IMG/VR virus record: IMGVR_UViG_3300045391_001644
Span: 1 to 34,041 of that record
Direction: 5' to 3' (one strand)
Length of the DNA: 34,041 nt
Source: a virus
Shown in pieces: positions 194 to 34,041 of this stretch; within the stretch, counting starts at the first letter, position 1; every line of letters begins with the position of its first letter. The position numbers and the translations under genes were made by a program. The notes beneath the pieces were generated by a model. It saw only the letters and a list, made by a program, of their open reading frames with translations, searched no databases and was not told where the DNA came from.

Positions 194-841
194 CTATTCG
201 GTTTTTCCCTCTTTGAGGGCGCGGATTTTTGTCTTTCTAACGTGCTTCAATTTCGCCAGGGTCAGCACGGCCGGCCGGACTTCCGGTTCTGCATCGTCAT
301 AGCCCGGCTCCCATCGTCCATTTATCAGCGGCAGCGCGCCGCGCGGAATAAGCTCCCAGTTCGACGGGTCGCAATTCGTGCGATCGCCATCGAGGCATTT
401 CAGGCACATTCCCTCTGGAACTGGACCATTCTTTTTTTGCCATAAGTATTTATGCTTGAGTACGTAGCGTCGCTCGAAGCCGGTATGCGGATTGGTTTCG
501 TTGATGCTGATGTAAATATAACCGTCCTCATGCTGATACTCATGGCCGGCATATTTCGTGTTGTGCGGCCGCTGGCCCTTTTTGAATTGCGTCCTCGCGC
601 TGTTCGCGTTGTAGGGCATCTTCTTGCCCTTGTTCTGCGGGACGCTGCCTTTCGCGTAATGCCCGGTGCGGCCGGTCAACCAGCCGTTACGCTTGCACAG
701 GGCGTTGAAATTGTCGATCGACACATTGGCCCTGGCAAATTCCCTGCAGAATTTTTCATGTGCCTCCCGCCTGTCGTCCGTGCAGTGAGCCTTAATCCAG
801 GCCAGTTCTGCGGCCGTGTATGTGATAGGCCGGCGTTTCAT
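194..841 (-). CDS. HNH homing-endonuclease-like protein
   Basis: 215-aa ORF. The C-terminal half (GYIYISI..RYVLKHKYLWQKKNGPVPEGMCLKCLDGDRTNCDPSNWELIP) has the His/Asn/Cys pattern of phage HNH_3-type nucleases. Its start overlaps the upstream stop (ATGA). Confidence 0.75.
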   Translation of the reverse strand: MKRRPITYTAAELAWIKAHCTDDRREAHEKFCREFARANVSIDNFNALCKRNGWLTGRTGHYAKGSVPQNKGKKMPYNANSARTQFKKGQRPHNTKYAGHEYQHEDGYIYISINETNPHTGFERRYVLKHKYLWQKKNGPVPEGMCLKCLDGDRTNCDPSNWELIPRGALPLINGRWEPGYDDAEPEVRPAVLTLAKLKHVRKTKIRALKEGKTE

Positions 842-1170
842 TTTTTCTTCGCCTCGCCGGTGGGGCGGTTAAGTTTCCGAAGATCGCGCGCCTCAACGAT
901 TTCCTTGACGACGTCCGGCATCGGTTCTGCGGCCGTGGCTTTGCCCTCGATCATCGGCAGCATTTTTTCGTAGTTGCCGCCATATTCCGCTACAAGTGCC
1001 GCGCCCTTGAGGGCGAGATTGGCATTCTCGATGATCTGTTCGCCCACGGCGACGATCGCATTTGTGCGCCTGATCTCCTTCTCGATATCCTCGACTTTTA
1101 AATCTTCATCACCGAGCCTTTCCAGCTGCGCGAACAGGTGATTATTCAGATCGATCAGTTTATTTTTCAT
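838..1170 (-). CDS. Hypothetical phage protein (coiled-coil-like, acidic)
   Basis: 110-aa ORF with a GAGGA-type RBS upstream, translationally coupled to the HNH gene. Confidence 0.6.
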   Translation of the reverse strand: MKNKLIDLNNHLFAQLERLGDEDLKVEDIEKEIRRTNAIVAVGEQIIENANLALKGAALVAEYGGNYEKMLPMIEGKATAAEPMPDVVKEIVEARDLRKLNRPTGEAKKK

Positions 1171-2678: not shown

Positions 2679-3821
2679 TTACACCTTCTCCGCTTCCGCG
2701 CGTTTCGTGAATGCGTTACGCGCCATCTTCGCGGTGCGGATGAGGTAACGATCGATAATGCTTTCAACGGTCTTGAGCGAATGTCCGGTGATCGAAGCGA
2801 TCTCCGGCGTCGTGCAGCCGGCCTCGGCCAGCCTGGTCACGGCCGTGTGGCGCAGGTCTTTGAAAATCAGCCCTTTCAATTCGGGATGCTTTTTCTCGGC
2901 GGCCTTACGGAGCGCCGCCAGTGTGCGCGTGAAATAACTGTCGCTGTATGGTTTGCCCTCAACGACATGACCCGCAGCTGCATGCGCTTCCTGCTGGATG
3001 AGAACAACACCCAGTTTTTTGCGCGCGTTGTTCTGCCTGATCTGCTCCTCGATGCGCGCCTGAATATGCGCAGGGAGGATTTTCAGATCAAGCTCGACCT
3101 CGGCGCCGGTTTTGGATTGTTTGATCTTTAAAACGCCGCCGACAATATCGGCCATCTTGATCGAGCAGATATCGCCCTTACGCTGGCCGAGCCATTCATT
3201 GAGCATGATGGCGGTGCCGATCGAGAAATACCCCTCCTCGTCTGCGGCCGCGACCATGATGCGCACAGCCTCCGGCGTCCACAGTATTCCCTTCGGCGCC
3301 GTGTATTCCAGGTTGATGGCGCTGGCAGGGTTCGAGCCTTTAGCAATGACACCTTCCCGTTCAGCATGGTTGAAGACAATGCGCAAGACCTGTATGACGT
3401 AAACAGAAGTCCGCTTGCTTTTCACCCGCAATTCTTCATAAAGATTTTCGACCATCTTGGTCGTGATGATCGCGGCCGGCATGTCTCCCGCCCAGGCGCT
3501 GATGGTCTTGAGGGCGCGGTCGTAATCACGCACCGTGCGCGGCGATAACTTTTCGTAGAAGCGGGATTTTTTATAGCTCTCGATCACGGCATCGATGCTG
3601 CCGGCGAGATTGGTCGAAGGGTCCTTGCGAATGCCGGCGCGCCATTCATCGACCTGGCTGTTGATGATCTCCGCCTGGCTCAGCGCCTCGTTGCGTTCAG
3701 GTGGCAGTCTGGTCAGCTTCCAGCCTTTGCCTTTTAGATTTTTATCGGGCTGCCAGAAATAACGTTCGCTGCCATCTTTGCGCTTGCGCACGGTGAAGTA
3801 TCGTACAGAGATTTTTGCCAT
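2679..3821 (-). CDS. int: Tyrosine recombinase / phage integrase
   Basis: 380 aa. The N-terminal part resembles an arm-binding/SAM-like domain. The C-terminal catalytic signature is present: GQRKGD.., FKDLRHTAVTRLAEAGCTTPEIASITGHS, ..IIDRYL (R..HxxR..Y). Confidence 0.9.
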   Translation of the reverse strand: MAKISVRYFTVRKRKDGSERYFWQPDKNLKGKGWKLTRLPPERNEALSQAEIINSQVDEWRAGIRKDPSTNLAGSIDAVIESYKKSRFYEKLSPRTVRDYDRALKTISAWAGDMPAAIITTKMVENLYEELRVKSKRTSVYVIQVLRIVFNHAEREGVIAKGSNPASAINLEYTAPKGILWTPEAVRIMVAAADEEGYFSIGTAIMLNEWLGQRKGDICSIKMADIVGGVLKIKQSKTGAEVELDLKILPAHIQARIEEQIRQNNARKKLGVVLIQQEAHAAAGHVVEGKPYSDSYFTRTLAALRKAAEKKHPELKGLIFKDLRHTAVTRLAEAGCTTPEIASITGHSLKTVESIIDRYLIRTAKMARNAFTKRAEAEKV

Positions 3822-4430: not shown

Positions 4431-4517
4431 CGTTGTCTCCCTGGTTTGAATTTGCGGCGAGATAATAAAAGGGGATTGTTGAAATCATCGTGCATGCGCA
4501 CGGTGAACAATGTTCGG

Positions 4518-4583: not shown

Positions 4584-4994
4584 TCATGCTGCCGCCTTTA
4601 ATTCGTCGGCATCATCAACGATCACGAAACTGCGCAGCAATTTTTTAAACGCTTTGCGCTTTTGTTCCGGCAGCGCGTTATACAGCGCGACCATCTGGAG
4701 ACTGTCGGGGCTGAACGTGGCATCATCGACCTGCGCCAGCACTTTCCCTTGCATGTACTCCTGATAAAACCATGTCACCGGCACATCCAGAATTTGCGCA
4801 AACTGATAGAGCCGCCCGGCGCTGATGCGGTTCATGCCGCGTTCGTATTTCTGGATTTGCTGGAAGGTCAGGCCGATGCTCTCCGCCAGTTTTTCCTGGC
4901 TGAGACCGAGCAGCGACCGGCGGATGCGAAGGCGAAGCCCGACATGGATATCGACGGGGTCCGGCTTTCCTTTTGTCTTGCGAAGCCCGGTCAT
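4584..4994 (-). CDS. XRE-family HTH transcriptional regulator
   Basis: HTH_3 signature: LRIRRSLLGLSQEKLAESIGLTFQQIQKYERGMNRISAGRLYQFAQIL. The ATG at 4994 has a GGAG 6 nt upstream; the TTG at 5030 in the ORF track is an alternative start. Confidence 0.8.
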   Translation of the reverse strand: MTGLRKTKGKPDPVDIHVGLRLRIRRSLLGLSQEKLAESIGLTFQQIQKYERGMNRISAGRLYQFAQILDVPVTWFYQEYMQGKVLAQVDDATFSPDSLQMVALYNALPEQKRKAFKKLLRSFVIVDDADELKAAA

Positions 4995-5092
4995 GCGCGG
5001 CTCCAGTAAGCAGCGCAGGACTTGCGGCAACGGGCCAAATGGCGGCGGTGCGCGCGGTGTCTGCAGTAGAATTCAAAGATGTATTTGAACAT
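4991..5092 (-). CDS. Candidate 33-codon leader ORF coupled to the XRE regulator
   Basis: GGAGG, then a 6-nt spacer, then the ATG at 5092. It encodes MFKYIFEFYCRHRAHRRHLARCRKSCAAYWSRA, and its TGA overlaps the regulator ATG (ATGA). Too short for the ORF track. Confidence 0.3.
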   Translation of the reverse strand: MFKYIFEFYCRHRAHRRHLARCRKSCAAYWSRA

Positions 5093-5989: not shown

Positions 5990-6331
5990 TTATTGTTTTT
6001 TTTCTAATTTGCCTTCGATATAACCGATCAGGCGATCTTGGTCTTTGTCTTGAAGGTTGCGGAAAAGCTCCAGGAGTTCTTTTTCCTGTGGGGTTTTCGG
6101 TGCCGCGACGTGTCCCGGCCCTTCTGTAATTTCAAGAGGGTGGACTTCAAAAACTTCAGCCAGGCGAAGCAATTTTGACCAGGACAGCTCCTGTTTTTGC
6201 AGTTCCAGTTTGCTGACAGTCTGCCCGTGCCAGCCCGGCCCGGCCTTTTCTGCGACATCACGGGTGGTCCAGCCGCGCGCTTCACGCAGTTCCTTGATGT
6301 AGTTTTTCGGATATTTTCCGGCGTTCCCCAT
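5990..6331 (-). CDS. CI-like XRE-family repressor
   Basis: Start at the Met of MGNAGKYPKNYIKELREARGWTTRDVAEKAG..QTVSKLELQKQELSWSKLLRLAEVFEV (HTH). It is divergent from the Cro-like gene across the operator cluster. No obvious SD, so the mRNA may be leaderless. Confidence 0.75.
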   Translation of the reverse strand: MGNAGKYPKNYIKELREARGWTTRDVAEKAGPGWHGQTVSKLELQKQELSWSKLLRLAEVFEVHPLEITEGPGHVAAPKTPQEKELLELFRNLQDKDQDRLIGYIEGKLEKKQ

Positions 6332-6346
6332 GACGAGACTAGCTGA

Positions 6347-6408
6347 CAACAAATTTTTGTCTTGTTCAGTCAATAATTTTTTGTCATGATGACAACAAAT
6401 CATTGTCA
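6347..6408. promoter_or_regulatory. Tripartite operator cluster (6347-6362, 6371-6386, 6393-6408) in the divergent CI/Cro promoter region
   Basis: The three sites are CAACAAATTTTTGTCT, CAATAATTTTTTGTCA and CAACAAATCATTGTCA, spaced 24 and 22 bp apart. The last sits within TGACAA-N7-TTGTCA dyad symmetry. Confidence 0.65.
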
Positions 6409-6413
6409 AACTC

Positions 6414-6788
6414 ATGAAAATATCCGAATACATACAGCTGAAATTCCAAGGAAACGTGTCTGCCGCTGCCCGTGATATGGGCAAGAAAAAGCAGACCGTC
6501 CAGCTTTGGGTTGATGGAACGATCCCGCGTAAAGGCGAGGTTGAGGCCATTTTCGTGTGGTCGGGCGGTGCAGTTCGACCCGATGATTTTTATTCCCTAC
6601 CCGAGTTATCGGCAGCCGCCGGTGAAGGCGACCAGGAGTTCCTTGGTCGCTTCGTTTCCCAAAAAACGATTGAGGAAGGTCGGGCCGCTGATGCCCCTGC
6701 GTTTTTCTCCAATGGCGCAGACCGGCAGACGCAGCCCGATCTTTTTCGATCGTCGCAAAAATCCACCCACGCGGAGGCTCAGTCATGA
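6414..6788 (+). CDS. Cro/YdaS-like HTH protein
   Basis: The N-terminus, GNVSAAARDMGKKKQTVQLWVDGTIPRKGEVEAIFVWSGGAVRPDDFY, matches the Cro/YdaS-type pattern. First gene of the rightward early operon. Confidence 0.65.
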   Translation: MKISEYIQLKFQGNVSAAARDMGKKKQTVQLWVDGTIPRKGEVEAIFVWSGGAVRPDDFYSLPELSAAAGEGDQEFLGRFVSQKTIEEGRAADAPAFFSNGADRQTQPDLFRSSQKSTHAEAQS

Positions 6789-7109: not shown

Positions 7110-7334
7110 ATGGCCGCGCAACAGCTGAGATCGCAAAGAACGGAACGGCTGTCACCCTATCGGTCACGCGCGTCAAAAGAAGTTTTCATTCCCTGCATGT
7201 GCTGCGGAAATGATTTCTGGTCATGGTGCAAAAAGAAAAACCGCCTCTGCACACCCTGCATCGAGCGCGGTTATCAGCCGAGTATAGACATCGTGCGCGA
7301 CGGCGCCGGCCGCCGTAAATCGGAGGAGCAATGA
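7110..7334 (+). CDS. Small zinc-ribbon protein
   Basis: 74 aa with a Cys cluster, CMCCGNDFWSWCKKKNRLCTPC. Its stop overlaps the primase gene start. Confidence 0.55.
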   Translation: MAAQQLRSQRTERLSPYRSRASKEVFIPCMCCGNDFWSWCKKKNRLCTPCIERGYQPSIDIVRDGAGRRKSEEQ

Positions 7335-8422
7335 GCCTCATGGAAATTTCAGAGATCGCAAAAATGCTCGCCGCCGATATCGACACGCTGGTGAGAATTC
7401 TTTTGCCAGCCGCGCGGATGGAAGGCCCGGAATGGCGCATCGGTTCCTGCGCCGGCGAACCCGGCCGCAGCATGGCGATCCACCGCCACGGCTCCAAGCG
7501 CGGATTGTGGTCAGATTTTTCCGATCGCGGCAAAGGCGGCGATGCTGTTGAGCTGGTCGCCCAGGTATTATTTGCCGGTGACAAAAAACTGGCGATCCAG
7601 TGGTCGCGCCGGCATCTCGGTCTTGACAAGCTCGACCCGAATGCGCTGAAGCAAACGCGCGCAAAAATAAAATCCCAAATCAAAACCGACGAAGAAAATG
7701 CAAGGGCGGCAGCTGCAAAACGTTCGCGCCTGGCGCAAGCCATCTGGCTCAGCGGCCGCGCGGATTTAGAAAACACACCTGTCGCGCTTTATCTTCTCGG
7801 TCGCGGCATCGGTCTCGGTGACCTGGCACGGCCGCCGGGCGCCCTGCGCTATGTCGCCTCCCTGGATTATCCCCCGTCTTTGAATGACGGATTGGTGACG
7901 AGCTGGCCGGCAATGGTTGCGGCGATCACCAACGGCCGCGGTGAACACATCGCCACGCACAGAACATTTCTGCATTCGCCGATGGGTGGCGTCGTTAAAA
8001 AGGCGCCGGTCAAAGATGCGAAGCTGACGCTCGGCTCATATCGCGGCGGATATATTCCGTTGAGCCGCGGTGCATCTGGCAAGTCGCTGAAAGATGCGCC
8101 GGCCGGCGACAAGGTCATCATCTGCGAAGGCATCGAGGACGGTCTTTCCCTGGCGTTAAGCCTGCCAGAATATCGTGTCCTGGCCGCGATCTCTGTCAGC
8201 AATTTCATGAACATCGATCTGCCGAAAAATATCAGCGAGGTCGTGATCGCAGCCGATAATGACGGCGAAGACACTCCCGCCGGCCGCGCCCTGCAGAGCG
8301 CGATTGACCGCTTCATCGACCAGGGCCGCGACGTGTTCGAGGCCCGCAGCCCGATCGGAAAAGATTTCAACGATGCGCTGACGGCCGAGGAGCTGCAGGA
8401 ACAACTTCAGGGGGCGATATGA
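7331..8422 (+). CDS. Toprim-domain primase-like protein
   Basis: VIICEGIEDGLSLA (Toprim Glu) and VVIAADNDGEDTPAGRAL (DxD). The N-terminal region GEPGRSMAIHRHGSKRGLWSDFSDRGKGGDAVELV is typical of P4-alpha-related primase N-domains. Confidence 0.75.
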   Translation: MSLMEISEIAKMLAADIDTLVRILLPAARMEGPEWRIGSCAGEPGRSMAIHRHGSKRGLWSDFSDRGKGGDAVELVAQVLFAGDKKLAIQWSRRHLGLDKLDPNALKQTRAKIKSQIKTDEENARAAAAKRSRLAQAIWLSGRADLENTPVALYLLGRGIGLGDLARPPGALRYVASLDYPPSLNDGLVTSWPAMVAAITNGRGEHIATHRTFLHSPMGGVVKKAPVKDAKLTLGSYRGGYIPLSRGASGKSLKDAPAGDKVIICEGIEDGLSLALSLPEYRVLAAISVSNFMNIDLPKNISEVVIAADNDGEDTPAGRALQSAIDRFIDQGRDVFEARSPIGKDFNDALTAEELQEQLQGAI

Positions 8423-8727
8423 AATTCCAAAAATTAAATGACAGGAAACCCGTCGAAGCGCCGCCGGTGCAAGAAAATACATCGGCGAAAAGCATCAAGA
8501 ATTTGGATCTGAAAGATTTCTGGGAAATTGTCCGCAAGCACGTCCGCGATCAATCGATCGATATTCTGCTGCAGCCGGCAGCGAACACCGTGAAATGGCA
8601 GATCGTCACCTGGCGCAACGGCGAATGGAATGTGTACATCCTCGATCGCATGACTGAGGAATACGCGAAAACAATCGCGTACAAAATCACTGAATTTTAT
8701 CAACTGACGAAGGGCGTGAATGTCTGA
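8419..8727 (+). CDS. Hypothetical protein
   Basis: 102-aa ORF whose start and stop overlap the flanking replication genes. Confidence 0.6.
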   Translation: MKFQKLNDRKPVEAPPVQENTSAKSIKNLDLKDFWEIVRKHVRDQSIDILLQPAANTVKWQIVTWRNGEWNVYILDRMTEEYAKTIAYKITEFYQLTKGVNV

Positions 8728-10513
8728 CGCTAAAGAAACGATCGCTACAGCGGTGAAGTCCGCGCCGAAAGCCCGCCGCAGCAAAAAAGACAAGCCGGCG
8801 GTTTCGCATGAGGATGCTTCTGCGCCCTATGACATCACGTTCCCGCCCGATTGCCCGATCGAGCCGCTGGGCATCAACGGCGATGATGTTTATTTCCTCG
8901 ATCAAAAACGCCAGCTGGCAGTTTTGAAATCCGACAAGCTCAACATGGGGACCATCCGCGCCCTGTTCGGTAATCTGCAGGAGCTGAAATATGCCTACTG
9001 GCCTCGCTTCTCAAAGCCGGACGAAAACGGGAGGTGTAAAGTGAACGGATGGCGGCCTGAACAGGCTGCCGATTGTTTGTATGCCGAGGCCTCGCGCAAA
9101 GGATTGTGGGATGTGCTTGAGCGTGTGCGCGGTCCCGGCTGCTGGCGCGATGCCGACGGCAAGCTGGTGATGCATTGCGGCGATCTGCTTTTCCATGATG
9201 GCCAAGCGATGACGCCGCGGCAGATCGGCCGTCATGTTTATCCGTCCGCGCCCGCCGGCCCGCACCCGATGATGAAGACGGCAACCACGAAAGAGATCGA
9301 GCAGCTGCTGACGCTGCTCAAGACCTGGTCGTGGCGCCGGCCGGATGTCGATCCGTATCTCCTCCTGGGATGGATCGGCGCATCGATCATGGGCGGCGCG
9401 CTGAAATGGCGGCCGCTGGTGTGGGTGACTGGCGACAAGGCGATGGGGAAATCCACGCTGCATGATGTCATCAAGGGCGTTCTCGGCCCCGGAGGTATTG
9501 TAAATTCGACGGATGCCACGGCCGCAGGCCTGTGGCAGACCGTCGGCCATGCTTCTATTCCTGTCGCGCTCGATGAAATTGAAGCTGAGCAGGATAATCG
9601 CAAAGCGCAAAACATCATCAAGCTCGCGCGCCAGGCGGCATCCGGCGGCCAGACATTGCGCGGTGGTTCCGATCATAAAAACGCATCGTTTACAGTGCGT
9701 TCATGCTTCCTGTTTTCCAGCATCCTGATCCCGCCGATGCTCGGCCAGGACATCAGCCGTATGGCCGTTCTGGAACTCGACAAGCTCCCCGAAAAAGCGA
9801 AGCCTCCAAGTTTAGATGAAAAAATGCTGGAGCAAATCGGCGCCGCCATCCGCGCGCGGATCATGCAGCAATGGGATCGCTTCCCTGATTTACTCCTCAC
9901 TTGGCAAACGCAGCTCGTCCAGGCCGGTCACTCCGGCCGTTCGGCCGATCAATTCGGCACGCTCCTCGCGTGCTACGACCTCCTGACCTCCGATTATGAG
10001 CCAGACACCGAAGCGAAAGAAAAATGGTCATTGCGCCTGGCGAAGCAAGGGCTGGCTGAATGCGAACAGGATATCGCCGACCATGAGCGTTGCATCTCGT
10101 ACCTCATGACCACGCAGCTCGATCTCTATCGATCGGGCGAACGCCGCACGGTAGGCAGCTGGATCATCCAGGCGGCCGGCAAGGATAAGGTTAATTACCA
10201 TACAAAAGATATCGAAGACGCCAACAAGGCGCTCGGCAATGTCGGGCTTATGGTCAAAGAATTATCAACCCGAGGCGCTAGCGGCGGGTTTAAATACCAT
10301 GTCCTCTACGTCGCAAATGACCATCAGGGCCTCGCCGGCCTATTCGCCAATTCACACTGGTCCGGCAACTCAGGGACCAATGGCGTCTGGGTCCAGGCGA
10401 TGCGGCGCGTCAAGGGCGCCCAGGCCGATCAGCAACGCTTCAACGGTCTCAAGAAACGCTGCACGGCCATCCCATTAACCGAAGTGATCGGAGCTGACGA
10501 TGAGAAAGAATAA
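8720..10513 (+). CDS. P4/D5-type (SF3) helicase-like replication ATPase
   Basis: 597 aa. Walker A in VWVTGDKAMGKSTL and Walker B in IPVALDEIE. It follows the primase gene, as in split P4-alpha-type replicases. Confidence 0.75.
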   Translation: MSDAKETIATAVKSAPKARRSKKDKPAVSHEDASAPYDITFPPDCPIEPLGINGDDVYFLDQKRQLAVLKSDKLNMGTIRALFGNLQELKYAYWPRFSKPDENGRCKVNGWRPEQAADCLYAEASRKGLWDVLERVRGPGCWRDADGKLVMHCGDLLFHDGQAMTPRQIGRHVYPSAPAGPHPMMKTATTKEIEQLLTLLKTWSWRRPDVDPYLLLGWIGASIMGGALKWRPLVWVTGDKAMGKSTLHDVIKGVLGPGGIVNSTDATAAGLWQTVGHASIPVALDEIEAEQDNRKAQNIIKLARQAASGGQTLRGGSDHKNASFTVRSCFLFSSILIPPMLGQDISRMAVLELDKLPEKAKPPSLDEKMLEQIGAAIRARIMQQWDRFPDLLLTWQTQLVQAGHSGRSADQFGTLLACYDLLTSDYEPDTEAKEKWSLRLAKQGLAECEQDIADHERCISYLMTTQLDLYRSGERRTVGSWIIQAAGKDKVNYHTKDIEDANKALGNVGLMVKELSTRGASGGFKYHVLYVANDHQGLAGLFANSHWSGNSGTNGVWVQAMRRVKGAQADQQRFNGLKKRCTAIPLTEVIGADDEKE

Positions 10514-10657
10514 CGCTCTCCGCGCAGTTAATTTCGTTGCAAATTCTGCCCTGGCCCCGACCCGTCGCGCCCTGCGCACGACCCGTTTTCCCCGCGCCCA
10601 TTCCCTTAAACCCTATGGATTTCATTCATTCCGAAAAAGTCAATCCGCTTTCTCAAC

Positions 10658-10924
10658 TGTCCCGCTGTCCCGGTCATTGTCCCGGTCATTGTCCCGGTGG
10701 TTTGTTTGCACCTTCAGCGGGTTAGGGAGATTGTCCCGCTGTCCCGGTCAACCTCTCACACATGCACACATGCACCTGCGCACACGGGGATGCAGCGGGA
10801 CATGCGGGACAGCGGGACAATTACGCCCTCTTTCTTCTTTTTCTGTTTTAAATCAGATGGTTAGAAAGATGAATGACTGTCCCGGCGTCTGTCCCGGTCT
10901 GTCCCGCCGATCATCGATGATCGG
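10658..10924. repeat. Heptamer iteron array: 12 x TGTCCCG (6 forward, 3 inverted, 3 forward) plus an 18-bp perfect palindrome
   Basis: Forward copies start at 10658, 10666, 10678, 10690, 10732 and 10740. Inverted CGGGACA copies start at 10796, 10805 and 10813. Further forward copies start at 10878, 10890 and 10900. Other elements: a CACACATG tandem at 10757-10772, an AT-rich stretch at 10828-10860, and the palindrome CCGATCATCGATGATCGG at 10907-10924. Confidence 0.9.
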
Positions 10925-10956
10925 AAAAACCAATAAAATATGGGGGTTTTATTATC

Positions 10957-11586
10957 ATGACTGACCTGGGCGGCGAGAAAATCGGGATTAACACGGCTGT
11001 AGCTGAGGCTATTGCGCAGAATGGCGGCGTCCAGGTGCCTAATTTCGTGGATGCCGAGCAGCTTTCGTTGATACCTTTACGGAAAGTCGAGGATGGGGCC
11101 GAAGCGGTTTCTAGGGGTTCTCTCGCGCGGGGTGTGGGGAGGCCTCCCGGCTCGAAAAACAGACGGACGCAGGAGATGGCGGATTACATCCTGTCGCGCT
11201 ACACATCGCCGCTGATCGCGCTGGCTGAAACCTACGCGCGTCCGGTTCAAGATTTGGCGAAGGAACTCGGCTGCGACAAACTGGAAGCGTTCAAGCTCCA
11301 GCTCGTCGCCGCGAAAGAGCTTGCGCCGTACCTGCATCAGAAACTCCCGATCGCCATCGACACGGGCGAGAAGGGATTGATCCACCTGACGATCAACGCC
11401 GGGACCGCCGCAGCAGCGCAGCAGGTCATCGACGACAACAGATTGCAGGTCAAATTCCTTGACGTAATCGATCAAAACGACATTGAACAAAATCAAGGGC
11501 TTAGCGAATTATCCGCGCCAAACTCTAACGGCTCAAACTCTAACGGCTCAACAGAAACGCCGGAAAATAAAGGGAAAGATGAATAG
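10957..11586 (+). CDS. Probable terminase small subunit
   Basis: Sits immediately upstream of the large terminase. Basic DNA-binding-like segment: GRPPGSKNRRTQEMADYILSRYTSPLIALAE. The C-terminal NSNGSNSNGS comes from a 15-bp tandem duplication. Confidence 0.55.
   Translation: MTDLGGEKIGINTAVAEAIAQNGGVQVPNFVDAEQLSLIPLRKVEDGAEAVSRGSLARGVGRPPGSKNRRTQEMADYILSRYTSPLIALAETYARPVQDLAKELGCDKLEAFKLQLVAAKELAPYLHQKLPIAIDTGEKGLIHLTINAGTAAAAQQVIDDNRLQVKFLDVIDQNDIEQNQGLSELSAPNSNGSNSNGSTETPENKGKDE
11521..11550 (-). repeat. 15-bp tandem (AACTCTAACGGCTCA x2) containing two inverted copies of the att-arm motif CGTTAGAGTT
   Basis: AACTCTAACG at 11521-11530 and 11536-11545 is the exact reverse complement of the 10-mer at 107-116 and 130-139. 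It lies inside the 3' end of the terS-like gene. Confidence 0.7.
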
Positions 11587-11788
11587 ACAACAGCAGATTG
11601 ACGATCAGCAAAATCGAGCATGGAATTTCGATCTCGATGCCATGCCAATCGGTCACTACGCCGAGGGCAAGCTGCGCAACGGCGGCGGCATCGTGCCTGT
11701 GTTCAAGTCATGGAACGGCGCGTTTCAAAACGTTTCGACGGCGGCGCGCATCGACAACCTCAGCGCCTGGAGGAAGCGATGCATCTGA
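11579..11788 (+). CDS. Small hypothetical protein bridging terS and terL
   Basis: 69 codons (MNRQQQIDDQQNRAWNFDLDAMPIGHYAEGKL..). The ATG overlaps the terS stop, and its own stop overlaps the TerL ATG at 11779. Confidence 0.45.
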   Translation: MNRQQQIDDQQNRAWNFDLDAMPIGHYAEGKLRNGGGIVPVFKSWNGAFQNVSTAARIDNLSAWRKRCI

Positions 11789-13248
11789 ATTTCGAGCCGC
11801 CCGGCCCGGTCGGCAAAGCGTTCATGGATTGCAGGTTCCCGGTGAAGTCGATCATGGGGCCGGTCGGCTCTGGCAAGACCAGCTGCCTGATGATGGACAC
11901 GATCAACGATGCCGCGCGGCAGCCACGCAGCAAGCTGGACGGTGTGCGGTATTCCAAGGCGCTATTCGTGCGGGAGACATTCCGCCAGCTGTACGGCACT
12001 ACAATCCCGTCCTGGTGGCAGTGGATGCCGAAAGAGGCCGGCGCATGGAAGGGCGGCGGCAACGAGGCCGGTCAGCATCACCTGCGGTTCCAGTTGCCCG
12101 ACGAGTCCATCGTTGACCTGGTGGTAATGTTCGAGGCTCTCGGCGAACAGAATGTCGAAGCCTTGTTCCGCGGTAAGGAATTCAATCTCCTGCGGCTCAA
12201 CGAGGCCGACACGCTGGTGCCGGACGTACTTTCGCAGGGCCTGATCCGCGTCATGCAGGGCCGATATCCGGGCGAGAAGCATGTCGATCCGAACCTGTGC
12301 GTGAAGAATGTCGCGCTCGATTACAACGCGCCTGACATCGACAATTACCTCTACATTCTCAACGAGGAAAACAAGCCAGAGAACTACGGCTTTTTCCGTC
12401 AGCCCGGCGGCCTTGATCCCAATGCCGAGAACCGCAAACGGGCAACGCTGGAGGCTTATCAGGCGATGGAGGCTGACCTGATCGCCCAGGGCCGCGAGGA
12501 CTTGGCGCGCCGGATGATCCATAACCAGTACGGCTATACGCGCGATGGTAAGCCGGTCTATCCCGAATACCGCGATGACTTCCACTGCGCCGGCGAGGAG
12601 CTGATGCCGATCGTTGACCTGGTCGTGCGGGTGGACTTCGACCAGGGGCTGCATCCTGCATGCACGTTTCGCCAGAACATGCCGAACGGTCAGCTCCGCA
12701 TCCTGGATGAGTTGTATTCCGAGGGCGGGGCTGTGGGCCTGACGGATGCTTTAAAGCGGCTGATCGGCACGGAAAAATATAGGGGCTGCCGGGTGTTGGG
12801 CGGGTTGTGCGATCCCTCTGCGGCCGCACGCGATGCCAACGATGCCGAGAGCTGGGTCGATTGCGTCAACCGGCTAATGAATTGGAGAGGCACGCAGCGT
12901 GTCAGGCTTGCGCCGACAAACGATCCTGAAAAACGTCAGAGCGCCGTGCGGTTTTATCTCCGGGCGACGGTCGGCGATGCCCGCCCTGGGCTTTTGATCT
13001 CGACCACCTGCCGCATTCTGCGCAAGGGTTTCAATTCGGATTTCCGCTTCAAGAAGAAAAGAATTTCAGGATCGGCACAGTACGACGAAAGTCCTGAAAA
13101 AAAATTCCCAGTTTCCGATGTGCATGACAGCGTCCAATACGGCGCCCTGGATAATGGCGGCTTCGAGGAGGTGGTGGGACGGGAGCAACGCCGGCAAGGG
13201 GGAATGGGTAGCAGGATGCGCACGGCAAAAGTGGAGGTGCGGTTATGA
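11779..13248 (+). CDS. terL: Terminase large subunit
   Basis: Walker A in IMGPVGSGKTSCLM and a Walker B-like FNLLRLNEAD. Start placed at MHLNFEPPG; the upstream 53 codons in the ORF track are Arg-rich and overlap the small ORF in another frame. Confidence 0.85.
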   Translation: MHLNFEPPGPVGKAFMDCRFPVKSIMGPVGSGKTSCLMMDTINDAARQPRSKLDGVRYSKALFVRETFRQLYGTTIPSWWQWMPKEAGAWKGGGNEAGQHHLRFQLPDESIVDLVVMFEALGEQNVEALFRGKEFNLLRLNEADTLVPDVLSQGLIRVMQGRYPGEKHVDPNLCVKNVALDYNAPDIDNYLYILNEENKPENYGFFRQPGGLDPNAENRKRATLEAYQAMEADLIAQGREDLARRMIHNQYGYTRDGKPVYPEYRDDFHCAGEELMPIVDLVVRVDFDQGLHPACTFRQNMPNGQLRILDELYSEGGAVGLTDALKRLIGTEKYRGCRVLGGLCDPSAAARDANDAESWVDCVNRLMNWRGTQRVRLAPTNDPEKRQSAVRFYLRATVGDARPGLLISTTCRILRKGFNSDFRFKKKRISGSAQYDESPEKKFPVSDVHDSVQYGALDNGGFEEVVGREQRRQGGMGSRMRTAKVEVRL

Positions 13249-13989: not shown

Positions 13990-15567
13990 ATGCCGCAGCT
14001 GCAACCCAGAGAATTAAAAAAACGTTCCGATGCAGCTTGGTTGCTGCGCGATCAATGGCGTACGATCCTCATCGATGCCTATGAAATGGCGATGGCCGGC
14101 CGCAATCCATATTCGGGAAACGACAAGGCCCCACGGCCGATGGATCGCCAATTCGACAGCACTGCTCCGATTTCGACGATCAAATTGGCGAACCGCATCC
14201 TGATGGATTTAACGCCGCCGGATCAGAACTGGATCGACGTCAAGCCCGGTCCCTTGCTGGAGCTTCAGTACAGCAAAGAAGATTTAGAGCAGCTGCGGCC
14301 AAAGCTCGATGGCGTTGCAAAAATCGGCAACATGGTCATCAACAGCGGCAATGCCGTGAATGTACGCTACGAAGCATTTATCGATATGCTGGTCGGCGGT
14401 ATGGGTGTCGCGCTTGCACTCGAAGATGCAACGGATGATCTGGAGCCGATCATCGAACAAGCTGTCAGCCAGGCCGAGGTCGCAATCGATGAAAACGCCA
14501 AAGGCCGCATCTCGGGTATTTTCCGCAGAAGAAAAATAAAGCTGAACAAGATCACGGAGATTTGGGATGATGCAAAAATCCCGGAGAATTTAACTAACCA
14601 AAAAGGAAAAGATAAAGACCCTGAAATCGAGGTGCTGGAGACAACCTACGAAGGCGGCGCAAAAAGCAATGTCGCTTGGTATTACGATGTCCTGATCTGT
14701 CAAAACGATGCCGAGCCTGTGCGTATCGTCGAGCGAACCTATGAGATTTGTCCCTGGACAATCTGGCGCTGGATGAAACTGCCGGGCATTCCGTACGGTC
14801 CCGGCCCTGTCATCCTCGCGCTCGCCGATATCCGCACCGCCAATAAAATCATGGAAATGATTTTGAAGAATGCGTCGCTGGCTCTCGCTGGTATGTATCT
14901 CGCCCGCGACGACGGTGTTTTAAATCCCGACAATGTCTTGATAACGCCGGGCGGGATCATCCCCGTTCAGGCAACGGGCGGATCGCTCGGGGCGTCGCTG
15001 GCGCCATTGGGCACCAACCGTGAATTCGATGTCGGGCAAATCATGCTCGATAAAATGCAGACAACGATTAAAAAGCATTTATTCGATAATTCTTTGCCGC
15101 CGGATCGCGCGACGCCGGCAAGCGCAACGGAAATAATTCAGCGCGTGAAAGAGTTGACCTCCGATATCGGTGGCGGCACCGGCCGTCTGCAGGCCGACAC
15201 GACGCAGTATGTTCGCCGGCGACTGGAAATCCTGGCTAAGCGCGGTCTTATACCGAATTTAAAAATCGACCAGTTTACGCTGAAGGTGCAAATCAACGCT
15301 CCTCTCGCGCGTGCTGCGCAGCATGCTGAAATCGAAACCGTTATCCAATGGTATCAACTCTGCATTTCCCTGGGCGGACCCCAGGCGGCAATGCTCGTCG
15401 GTAAAATTGAAGCAATTCTGATGTGGGCGGCCGAGAAGATGGGCGTTCCTAACGAACTGTTGCGGACGAAATCCGAACAGGCCGAGCTGCAGAAGAATGT
15501 CGCCACAATCGTGGCGGCGCAACAAAGCCAGCAAGCCACGGCGTCAATGCCGGCGCAGGCGGCTTAA
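13990..15567 (+). CDS. Portal (head-tail connector) protein, T7 gp8-like size and position
   Basis: 525 aa, lying between terminase and scaffold. The N-terminus RSDAAWLLRDQWRTILIDAYEMAMAGRNPY resembles podoviral connector proteins. Confidence 0.8.
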   Translation: MPQLQPRELKKRSDAAWLLRDQWRTILIDAYEMAMAGRNPYSGNDKAPRPMDRQFDSTAPISTIKLANRILMDLTPPDQNWIDVKPGPLLELQYSKEDLEQLRPKLDGVAKIGNMVINSGNAVNVRYEAFIDMLVGGMGVALALEDATDDLEPIIEQAVSQAEVAIDENAKGRISGIFRRRKIKLNKITEIWDDAKIPENLTNQKGKDKDPEIEVLETTYEGGAKSNVAWYYDVLICQNDAEPVRIVERTYEICPWTIWRWMKLPGIPYGPGPVILALADIRTANKIMEMILKNASLALAGMYLARDDGVLNPDNVLITPGGIIPVQATGGSLGASLAPLGTNREFDVGQIMLDKMQTTIKKHLFDNSLPPDRATPASATEIIQRVKELTSDIGGGTGRLQADTTQYVRRRLEILAKRGLIPNLKIDQFTLKVQINAPLARAAQHAEIETVIQWYQLCISLGGPQAAMLVGKIEAILMWAAEKMGVPNELLRTKSEQAELQKNVATIVAAQQSQQATASMPAQAA

Positions 15568-33972: not shown

Positions 33973-34012
33973 ATTTACAGTCTGCTGCCATTAACCACTC
34001 GGCCACCCTTCC
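33973..34012 (-). pseudogene. Truncated tRNA-Tyr 5' fragment inside the right att copy
   Basis: Same 40 nt as 1-40. After the anticodon loop the minus strand continues CATTCTCGCTAT, which cannot pair with the GCAGA anticodon stem, so no 3' half is present. Confidence 0.7.
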
Positions 34013-34041
34013 ATTCCACGGCAAGCCTTTATAATGATTGA
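33973..34041. repeat. att direct repeat, right copy
   Basis: Identical to 1-69. The preceding bases (..gcgagaatg) are phage-specific and unrelated to tRNA sequence. Confidence 0.9.

Follow-up and report, generated by a model that had tools for sequence, protein, structure and literature searches.

The closest described systems are the replication modules of the staphylococcal pathogenicity islands (SaPIs) and of the staphylococcal cassette chromosome mec (SCCmec). SaPI genes are ordered primase, rep and, directly 3′, the origin (PMC9371898). SaPI Rep reads penta- or hexanucleotide iterons via a C-terminal winged-helix domain; the origins carry 6-12 iterons, divided about evenly between the two flanks of an AT-rich center and with at least two per side in opposing directions, and probably two Rep hexamers are loaded, one per side (PMC9371898). 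Cch is a DUF927 relative of SaPIbov1 Rep (PMC7581432), and the origins of both Cch and SaPI Rep helicases are short iterons directly 3′ of the helicase's own gene (PMC9371898, PMC7581432). Here we analyze a viral sequence of 34,041 nucleotides (IMG/VR record IMGVR_UViG_3300045391_001644, positions 1 to 34,041; "the window"), in which an array of the heptamer TGTCCCG lies between the gene of a candidate helicase and a rightward late operon. The first gene of that operon encodes a protein that we call terS-like, and the gene for the large terminase subunit (TerL) follows it. Our preferred reading, to which we give a probability of about 65%, is that the array serves as the replication origin in a pri-rep-ori module (primase, initiator-helicase and origin) of the SaPI/SCCmec kind.

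The array lies in a gap of 443 bp, the longest stretch of the window free of open reading frames (ORFs); the next longest are 328, 286 and 278 bp. One mechanically called ORF (10500-10964) spans the gap, but comparison with relatives shows the region to be non-coding. The window holds 16 copies of TGTCCCG as against 4.0 ± 1.9 in shuffled sequences (maximum 8; none of 100 shuffles reached 16), and 12 of the 16 copies fall within 249 bp (10658-10906). The remaining four (2512, 5716, 6111 and 25097) are single and scattered, at the level expected by chance. An earlier note on this DNA had listed 12 exact copies with their orientations and coordinates, a tandem repeat, a repeated core, an AT-rich block and a perfect 18-bp palindrome in a long non-coding gap, all of which we could confirm.

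The 12 copies form four clusters, A to D (Table 1), with the tandem GTCATTGTCCCG ×2 at 10673-10696. The core reported earlier, CACACATG ×2 (10757-10772), is part of a longer tract of 29 bp in which purines and pyrimidines alternate (RY core). Its strictly alternating run (10757-10775, 19 nt) is the longest in the window. Two further short runs of this kind are found elsewhere (4489-4502 and 1362-1374), one of which is a palindrome, CGTGCATGCGCACG, just 3′ of the repressor-like gene 4584-5030(-). Also new with respect to the earlier note are two sites resembling those of integration host factor (IHF), one in the A-B spacer (TTCAGCGGGTTAG, at 10713) and one in the C-D spacer (ATCAGATGGTTAG), both fitting the IHF consensus.

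The surroundings of the clusters are conserved to different degrees. The left-flank sequence AAACCCTATGGATTTCATTCATTCCGAAAAAGTCAA has similar counterparts at the corresponding position of L001, L164, L165 and L007 and, in part, of L003-L005 (L-numbers denote comparison loci fetched around homologous genes). The palindrome next to cluster D is probably outside the core element: its sequence is not conserved, a different short hairpin being present in L004, L005 and L007 and none in L164 and L165. The left part of the gap, 5′ of the heptamers, contains an 18-bp direct repeat (10548-10586; GCCCTGGCCCCGACCCGT / GCCCTGCGCACGACCCGT, 83% identical). An Rfam scan of the array region returned nothing.

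Three sets of loci were compared: 80 found via terS-like homologues, 80 via the helicase, and 63 from bacterial genomes via the helicase. More than 100 distinct arrays with a common layout were present in related prophages and viral contigs of Alphaproteobacteria. The heptamer itself varied, with over 60 different words across the family (for example, TGTTGAC, TGCAACG, GGTAACG, TGTGACG, CCTAACG, AGACACC and GGTTCTG). In most loci, 7-13 copies of the respective heptamer were present, almost all of them in a stretch of about 300 bp that separates the helicase gene from the late operon. The order was cluster A, the first IHF-like site, two forward copies (cluster B), a GC-rich RY core of 25-35 bp, cluster C (two or three reverse copies), an AT-rich block with the second IHF-like site, and cluster D (three forward copies). 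An RY core was found between B and C regardless of the heptamer, with a median of 27 alternating steps out of 29. The heptamer is lineage-specific; the RY core and the layout are not. When 76 arrays were aligned on the center of the RY core (Table 1), the centered average showed that the whole element is roughly two-fold symmetric.

Two close relatives, L164 and L165, with 70% and 59% identity to the window in the terS-like protein, kept all 12 TGTCCCG copies exactly while their spacers had changed. This was a check proposed in the earlier note, namely that heptamer number and orientation be kept while the flanks drift, and the answer is a clear yes. It shows selection on the heptamers themselves. 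One base of the heptamer word was changed in L167 (terS-like protein 61% identical), and the heptamer of L059 is that of the window. The window's exact iteron pair had no match in species-representative genomes.

Of 62 genome loci found via the helicase, 44 had an array with an RY core 3′ of that gene. The distance from the helicase stop (10513) to the first heptamer (10658) is 145 bp in the window, typically 60-350 bp in most relatives, and 1.5-3.3 kb where genes have been inserted. The array always lay between helicase and late operon, with insertions seen on both sides of it, so that synteny alone is not decisive. The helicase-array junction is an insertion hot spot (L022 2326-3516(-), L049 2079-3203(-), L062 2503-3420(-), L064 1066-2751(+)); the inserts include a DNA methyltransferase gene and, on the opposite strand, anti-restriction genes of the ArdC-like type. 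On the other side, an extra ORF of about 200 amino acids without a family match separates the array from the terS-like gene in L011 (3379-3987), L060 (3289-3885), L079, L070, L103, L137, L150, L161 and L162.

The helicase candidate has a Walker A motif around residues 238-245. Its AlphaFold2 model, built with 48 homologues, was confident, with a predicted local distance difference test score (pLDDT) of 88.8 and a predicted template modeling score (pTM) of 0.82. Foldseek ranked SCCmec Cch (5dgk) first among PDB entries, with an E-value of 1.4e-9 over 591 aligned columns; NrS-1 helicase, poxvirus D5/E5, SaPI5 PriRep (7ola) and SaPI1 PriRep1 (7pds) came next. In sequence, DUF927 was matched by 6 of the 48 relatives and not by the window protein, the match to TIGR01613 (P4-family primase C-terminal) was 15.8 bits with a cut-off of 108.7, and the PHROG matches were of the "DNA primase" type. 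The protein is thus predicted to adopt the fold of self-loading initiator-helicases such as Cch and SaPI Rep, a likeness at the level of fold with weak support at the level of sequence.

The earlier note had offered three readings of the array without choosing: an origin, by analogy with the P4 alpha protein; a packaging region with terminal repeats of the T7 type; and late-operon control. We favor the origin because the helicase fold is that of Cch and SaPI Rep, because published origins lie 3′ of such genes, and because the array moves with the helicase. The last point is best seen in L111, L140 and L219 (the latter two being the same DNA, from Nitrospirillum iridis DSM 22198). These loci have a helicase of the window's family and a full four-cluster array, next to which comes an ORF of 277 amino acids. 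The TerL 3′ of the array belongs to the gpA family, and no homologue of the window's terS-like protein or TerL was found in these three loci. The lambda-type module of L111/L187 also includes a PHROG-57 small terminase, a lambda portal, an S49 protease and gpD. The presence of the helicase and a full array beside a lambda-type terminase indicates that the two can move together into a phage whose packaging genes are unrelated.

Sharing of the heptamer also tended, modestly, to follow the helicase. In 59 loci that have all three genes, the nearest neighbor shared the heptamer in 28 cases when chosen by helicase, 18 by TerL and 13 by terS-like protein. When identity was regressed on that of the ATPase core, heptamer-sharing pairs showed an excess of 9.5 points in the helicase C-terminal domain, the largest among segments covering all sharing pairs, and of 6.2 points each in terS-like protein and TerL; because the sharing pairs depend on one another, their p-values serve as a rough guide. 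L199, a distant phage with the same TGTCCCGC word, ranked 4th of 179 by identity to the window's helicase in the C-terminal domain and 34th by ATPase identity. Comparison of ten 60-residue helicase segments for heptamer sharing singled out none of them. Whole-protein identity was also tried as a discriminator and was not decisive; the heptamer evolves faster than the proteins, and some heptamers have converged (L131 and L142-L162; L036 and L073).

In the origin that we propose, the helicase would recognize the TGTCCCG heptamers through its C-terminal domain (about residues 491-597). The forward copies of B and the reverse copies of C, which point towards the RY core from opposite sides, would position one helicase ring on each side of it. 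Host IHF bound in the two spacers would fold outer cluster A onto B and D onto C, resulting in a compact, roughly two-fold symmetric nucleoprotein complex. The DNA would open at the core or next to it, most plausibly within the AT-rich spacers that flank it; the rings would load themselves, and the Toprim primase would prime synthesis by the host polymerase. Each phage lineage would have changed its heptamer together with its helicase, and co-resident relatives would thereby be kept from cross-reacting.

Several observations weigh against an origin served by this helicase. Other genes (ArdC-like, methyltransferase and others) stand between helicase and array in many loci. In L019/L154, L110, L119, L147, L197, L218, L221 and L223, the late operon begins within 30-250 bp of the array, whereas the helicase is 1.5-3.3 kb away. 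The signals of covariation are modest and come from non-independent pairs, and none of the proteins changes as fast as the heptamer; under strict sharing of the heptamer, the pairs have similar ranks for the three proteins (percentiles 92, 87 and 92). The center is GC-rich RY (59% GC in the window; 23% AT on average), unlike the AT-rich SaPI center. The "classic origin architecture" seen by the earlier note thus holds for its convergent iterons and not for its center, the AT-rich block lying off-center. Lastly, L046, L058, L050 and L010 have a P-loop ATPase of another kind but retain the terS-like gene, and 5′ of that gene they have a reduced element of two repeats, an RY core and two inverted repeats. 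Such elements may mean that the core belongs to the packaging or late module, or that unrelated helicases have similar, simpler origins. The module-swap argument is somewhat weakened by them.

The reduced elements are at 3690-3810 in L058, 3855-3955 in L050, 3735-3870 in L010 and 3660-3790 in L046. That of L058 is a palindrome with 45-bp arms that contains CGAAGGCAA ×2 on each side of tgtgcacgtgcgtatatatgcg; that of L050 consists of GGTGCCAG ×2, (CG)n and CTGGCACC ×2. A compact version in L010/L012 reads GAGAC ×3, RY core, GTCTC ×2.

Table 1. Features of the window and, in the last eight rows, of the average of 76 arrays aligned on the RY core center (positions relative to that center)
Feature	Position	Strand	Remark
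Integrase gene	2679-3821	-	
Repressor-like genes	4584-5030 and 5990-6550	-	
Primase gene	7331-8422	+	Toprim_3 + DUF7146 (Pfam, PHROG); first in replication module
102-aa ORF	8419-8727	+	between primase and helicase
Helicase candidate gene	8720-10513	+	597 aa, P-loop
Heptamer array gap	10514-10956		
Left-flank sequence AAACCCTATGGATTTCATTCATTCCGAAAAAGTCAA	10608-10643	+	conserved in closer relatives
Cluster A	10658-10696	+	four forward TGTCCCG (starts 10658, 10666, 10678, 10690)
IHF-like site TTCAGCGGGTTAGG	10713-10726	+	in A-B spacer; pattern match
Cluster B	10732-10746	+	two forward copies (starts 10732, 10740), 1 bp apart, aimed at core
RY core CACACATGCACACATGCACCTGCGCACAC	10757-10785		central, GC-rich, alternating purine/pyrimidine; 29 bp, 59% GC
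Cluster C	10796-10819	-	three reverse copies (10796-10802, 10805-10811, 10813-10819), facing core from other side
AT/pyrimidine-rich block	10820-10877	+	33% GC, between C and D
IHF-like site ATCAGATGGTTAG	10852-10864	+	inside AT-rich C-D spacer
Cluster D	10878-10906	+	three forward copies (starts 10878, 10890, 10900), 3-5 bp apart
Palindrome CCGATCATCGATGATCGG	10907-10924		perfect, 18 bp
Leader AATAAAATATGGGGGTTTTATT	10932-10953	+	conserved, 22 bp, just 5′ of first late gene; unique in window
terS-like gene	10957-11586	+	209 aa, no known family
TerL gene	11620-13248	+	34% identical to annotated TerL of Burkholderia phage BcepC6B
Portal gene, T7-type	13990-15567	+	PF12236
Capsid, tail-tube, internal-virion and lysis genes	3′ of portal	+	
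Average: cluster A	-140 to -90 bp		mixed orientation
Average: IHF-like peak	about -80 to -60 bp		TCAR-N4-TTR, 17 forward + 18 reverse matches
Average: cluster B	-60 to -30 bp		forward copies only; invariant family feature
Average: RY core	0		AT content drops to 23%
Average: cluster C	+20 to +45 bp		reverse copies
Average: second IHF-like peak	+40 to +60 bp		
Average: AT-rich DNA	+50 to +80 bp		AT content 61-67%
Average: cluster D	+80 to +120 bp		forward copies, some reverse copies outside

The window is a whole element of about 34 kb, with an exact 69-bp direct repeat at both ends (1-69 and 33973-34041). On the minus strand, the repeat covers the first half of a tRNA-Tyr (GTA) gene together with sequence 5′ of it; ARAGORN found no complete tRNA in the window. 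The repeat is probably the core of the attachment site or a circle junction. From this overlap, the element would measure about 33,972 bp and its target would be a tRNA-Tyr gene. Next to the attachment end lie two genes on the minus strand: one for an HNH endonuclease (194-841(-)) and a small one (838-1170(-)) whose PHROG match bears the name "RNA polymerase beta subunit". The primase matched PF13362 (E 1.5e-16) and PF23639 (E 1.7e-22) in Pfam and phrog_510, "DNA primase" (E 2.3e-30). TerL has the Walker A motif GPVGSGKTS and matched no Pfam or PHROG model; its true start codon is probably at 11779, because homology begins near residue 54. A DNA-level search of phage records with the window gave no match, and the family is not among cultured phages.

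As an alternative to an origin, the array could be a packaging site of the cos or pac type, at which the terS-like protein would bind the heptamers, IHF would bend the A-B and C-D spacers, as at lambda cosB or P1 pac, and TerL would cut the RY core, with packaging proceeding rightwards into the terminase genes. The array ends about 50 bp 5′ of the terS-like gene and usually stays beside the late operon despite insertions. In the lambda-type phages, however, the full array goes with an unrelated gpA TerL and PHROG-57 small subunit and lies 1.4 kb 5′ of the small-subunit gene, which in L111 has directly 5′ of it a 600-bp GC-rich non-coding stretch of its own. The GC-rich symmetric center resembles a cohesive-end site, and IHF-like sites between oppositely oriented clusters recall lambda cosB. 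Moreover, the repeats - RY core - inverted repeats of the reduced element are kept 5′ of the terS-like gene together with a different ATPase. The protein that would read the heptamers fits this role poorly: terS-like protein was the weakest predictor of the heptamer (13/59), and its helix-turn-helix (HTH) is nearly identical in proteins that go with different heptamers (window and P0005 versus P0004/L167). We therefore regard a packaging site as unlikely.

In the terS-like protein, an AT-hook-like motif, GRPxG..N, is invariant; residues 69-126 form a confidently modeled HTH of four helices, and the tail is disordered. It had no match in Pfam, NCBIfam or PDB, a weak PHROG match to a family of unknown function, and no detectable similarity to known small terminases, which also speaks against a packaging site. 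The structure model, of low overall confidence (pLDDT 65), showed a generic four-helix HTH and matched no known fold significantly. The protein is thus a putative small terminase, by its position before TerL.

Contigs of relatives end anywhere between 13 and 1263 bp 5′ of the terS-like gene, with no pile-up and no fixed end, which counts indirectly against packaging, although as a proxy for virion ends this even spread is uninformative. In favor of packaging, the linear ends of the BcepC6B record lie between its primase-helicase and terminase genes and adjoin 2+2 inverted repeats. The linear record of this phage (NC_005887; L081 1-110, L082 3300-3416) starts right after the primase-helicase gene gp46 with ACGATAGGGACGATAG and continues with an AT-rich palindrome and then inverted CTATCGTCCCTATCGTCCC. 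These 2+2 opposed iterons around an AT-rich center look like a SaPI-type origin at the end of the record.

Control of the late operon is a very unlikely explanation. According to it, a lineage-specific transcription factor encoded elsewhere would, with IHF, form a looped complex that switches the rightward late operon on or off. The array is always directly 5′ of the first gene of this long operon, whichever gene that is: the terS-like gene, the ORF of about 200 amino acids (L011, L060, L070, L079) or, in the lambda-type phages, the ORF of 277 amino acids. In L022, L049 and L062, a divergent ArdC-like gene abuts the array, so the array may hold divergent promoters. A scan of 10300-11100 for sigma-70-like promoters and terminators found none. 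Twelve sites in four clusters over 250 bp around a GC-rich RY center go far beyond the needs of known activators or repressors, no candidate regulator was found that varies with the heptamer, and the co-inheritance with the helicase would be left unexplained.

The strongly conserved leader after the array (AATAAAATA..GGGG..TTTTATT) would also suit late control. Its consensus, AATWAAATA-N3-GGGG-TTTTATT, hardly varies even between phages with protein identities of only 40-50%. The leader occupies the same place in L001, L004, L005, L007, L009, L018, L027, L164 and L165, and takes the form AATAAAATAnnnGGGnnGATATTC in L011, L019, L022, L060, L070 and L079. Where an extra ORF has been inserted, the leader precedes that ORF as the new first late gene, and the lambda-type L111 lacks it; it belongs to the late operon and not to the array. 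It might act in translation or as a late promoter specific to these phages. Its Shine-Dalgarno G-run would sit in an A/U hairpin loop.

We find it equally hard to credit a composite element, in which B - RY core - C would be shared by replication and packaging or late control and the outer clusters with the IHF sites would be specific to the Cch-like helicase. The inner part alone is kept with other ATPases, and the full four-cluster version tracks the helicase family, also into the lambda-type phage. Such a division is not parsimonious, nothing points directly to two functions, and the reduced elements may simply be the origins of other helicases. As to the T7-type terminal repeat raised in the earlier note, it found no support, there being no long repeat between arrays, no T7-type polymerase gene in the window and no pile-up of relatives' contig ends.

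The replication origin thus remains our preferred reading. More tentatively, the GC-rich, Z-DNA-prone RY center and the two IHF-folded iteron "hairpins" might define a distinct class of self-loading-helicase origin, used by many temperate phages of Alphaproteobacteria. In such a class, the RY tract rather than AT-rich DNA may be where ring assembly or opening is triggered. The more than 60 pairs of heptamer and C-terminal domain may then form a readable recognition code, which may also set replicon incompatibility between co-resident prophages. A limited literature search found no published description of the element, and the group of Alphaproteobacteria temperate phages that carry it is large and so far undescribed.

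If the array is an origin, the pri-rep-ori logic extends from staphylococcal satellites and SCCmec to complete temperate phages, with hosts in Rhodospirillales, Sphingomonadales, Rhodobacterales and Micavibrio, and the origins of these phages can be found by a simple sequence signature. A GC-rich RY center with two IHF-like sites poses the question of how a self-loading helicase opens such DNA. Lineage-specific heptamers paired with their own helicases would be a natural data set for how the C-terminal domain reads DNA and how replication cross-talk is avoided. Several cultured strains carry the element, so these ideas are directly testable; candidates are Nitrospirillum iridis DSM 22198 (with the lambda-type variant), Albimonas pacifica CGMCC 1.11030, Albimonas donghaensis DSM 17890, Chelatococcus asaccharovorans DSM 6462, Sphingomonas zeicaulis DSM 100587 and Paracoccus haematequi.

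Among other known systems, T7 has SRL/SRR heptamer arrays that flank the terminal repeat of its virion DNA. The window likewise has about a dozen heptamers, in a phage with a T7-type portal (PF12236). However, only a 29-bp core lies between its clusters, their orientation is mixed with dyad symmetry, and the only long repeat is the tRNA-derived overlap at the ends. The phage is temperate and no T7-type RNA or DNA polymerase gene was found in it; the same array also occurs in a phage with lambda-type head genes.

Lambda cos consists of cosN and of cosB with R sites and the IHF site I1 (R3-I1-R2); P1 pac has hexamer clusters flanking the cut site, and an IHF site. The array has in common with them its position just 5′ of the small terminase gene, opposed short repeated words around an IHF-like site, and a GC-rich, roughly symmetric center. 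Unlike them, it follows the helicase and not a terminase family, has many more repeats, on both sides of the center, and no physical ends were seen in the contig ends of its relatives.

P4 has two separated cis elements, ori and crr, with octamer type I iterons bound by alpha, a single fused primase-helicase. Both systems have short iterons of 7-8 bp, many starting with TGT, in both orientations and clustered beside a primase-helicase gene, and the window's helicase matches TIGR01613 weakly, far below the cut-off. The window's primase and helicase are separate genes, in contrast to alpha, and it has a single cluster of sites, the other four TGTCCCG being single. The element resembles P4 ori/crr to a lesser degree than it does the SaPI/SCCmec origin.

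The origins of SaPIs and other phage-inducible chromosomal islands (PICIs), and of SCCmec with Cch/Cch2, differ from the element in several respects. The window has heptamers instead of penta- and hexamers, and four clusters instead of two. Its center is GC-rich RY instead of AT-rich, the AT-rich DNA being in the lateral spacers with the IHF-like sites. The hosts of its family are Alphaproteobacteria, the carriers are complete temperate phages and not satellites, and similarity to DUF927 is marginal in the family (6/48). The gene order is nonetheless that of pri-rep-ori, primase followed by helicase with the origin directly 3′, except for an extra 102-aa ORF between the two genes. Where the known origins have 6-12 short iterons with at least two per side opposed, the window has 12, with two forward copies (B) facing three reverse ones (C), an opposition also found in the 76 aligned arrays. 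As in the known systems, the iteron sequence is specific to the element and the helicase fold matches Cch and PriRep, some relatives carrying DUF927. The element shares most of the defining features of a SaPI/SCCmec origin and departs from it in one, the AT-rich center.

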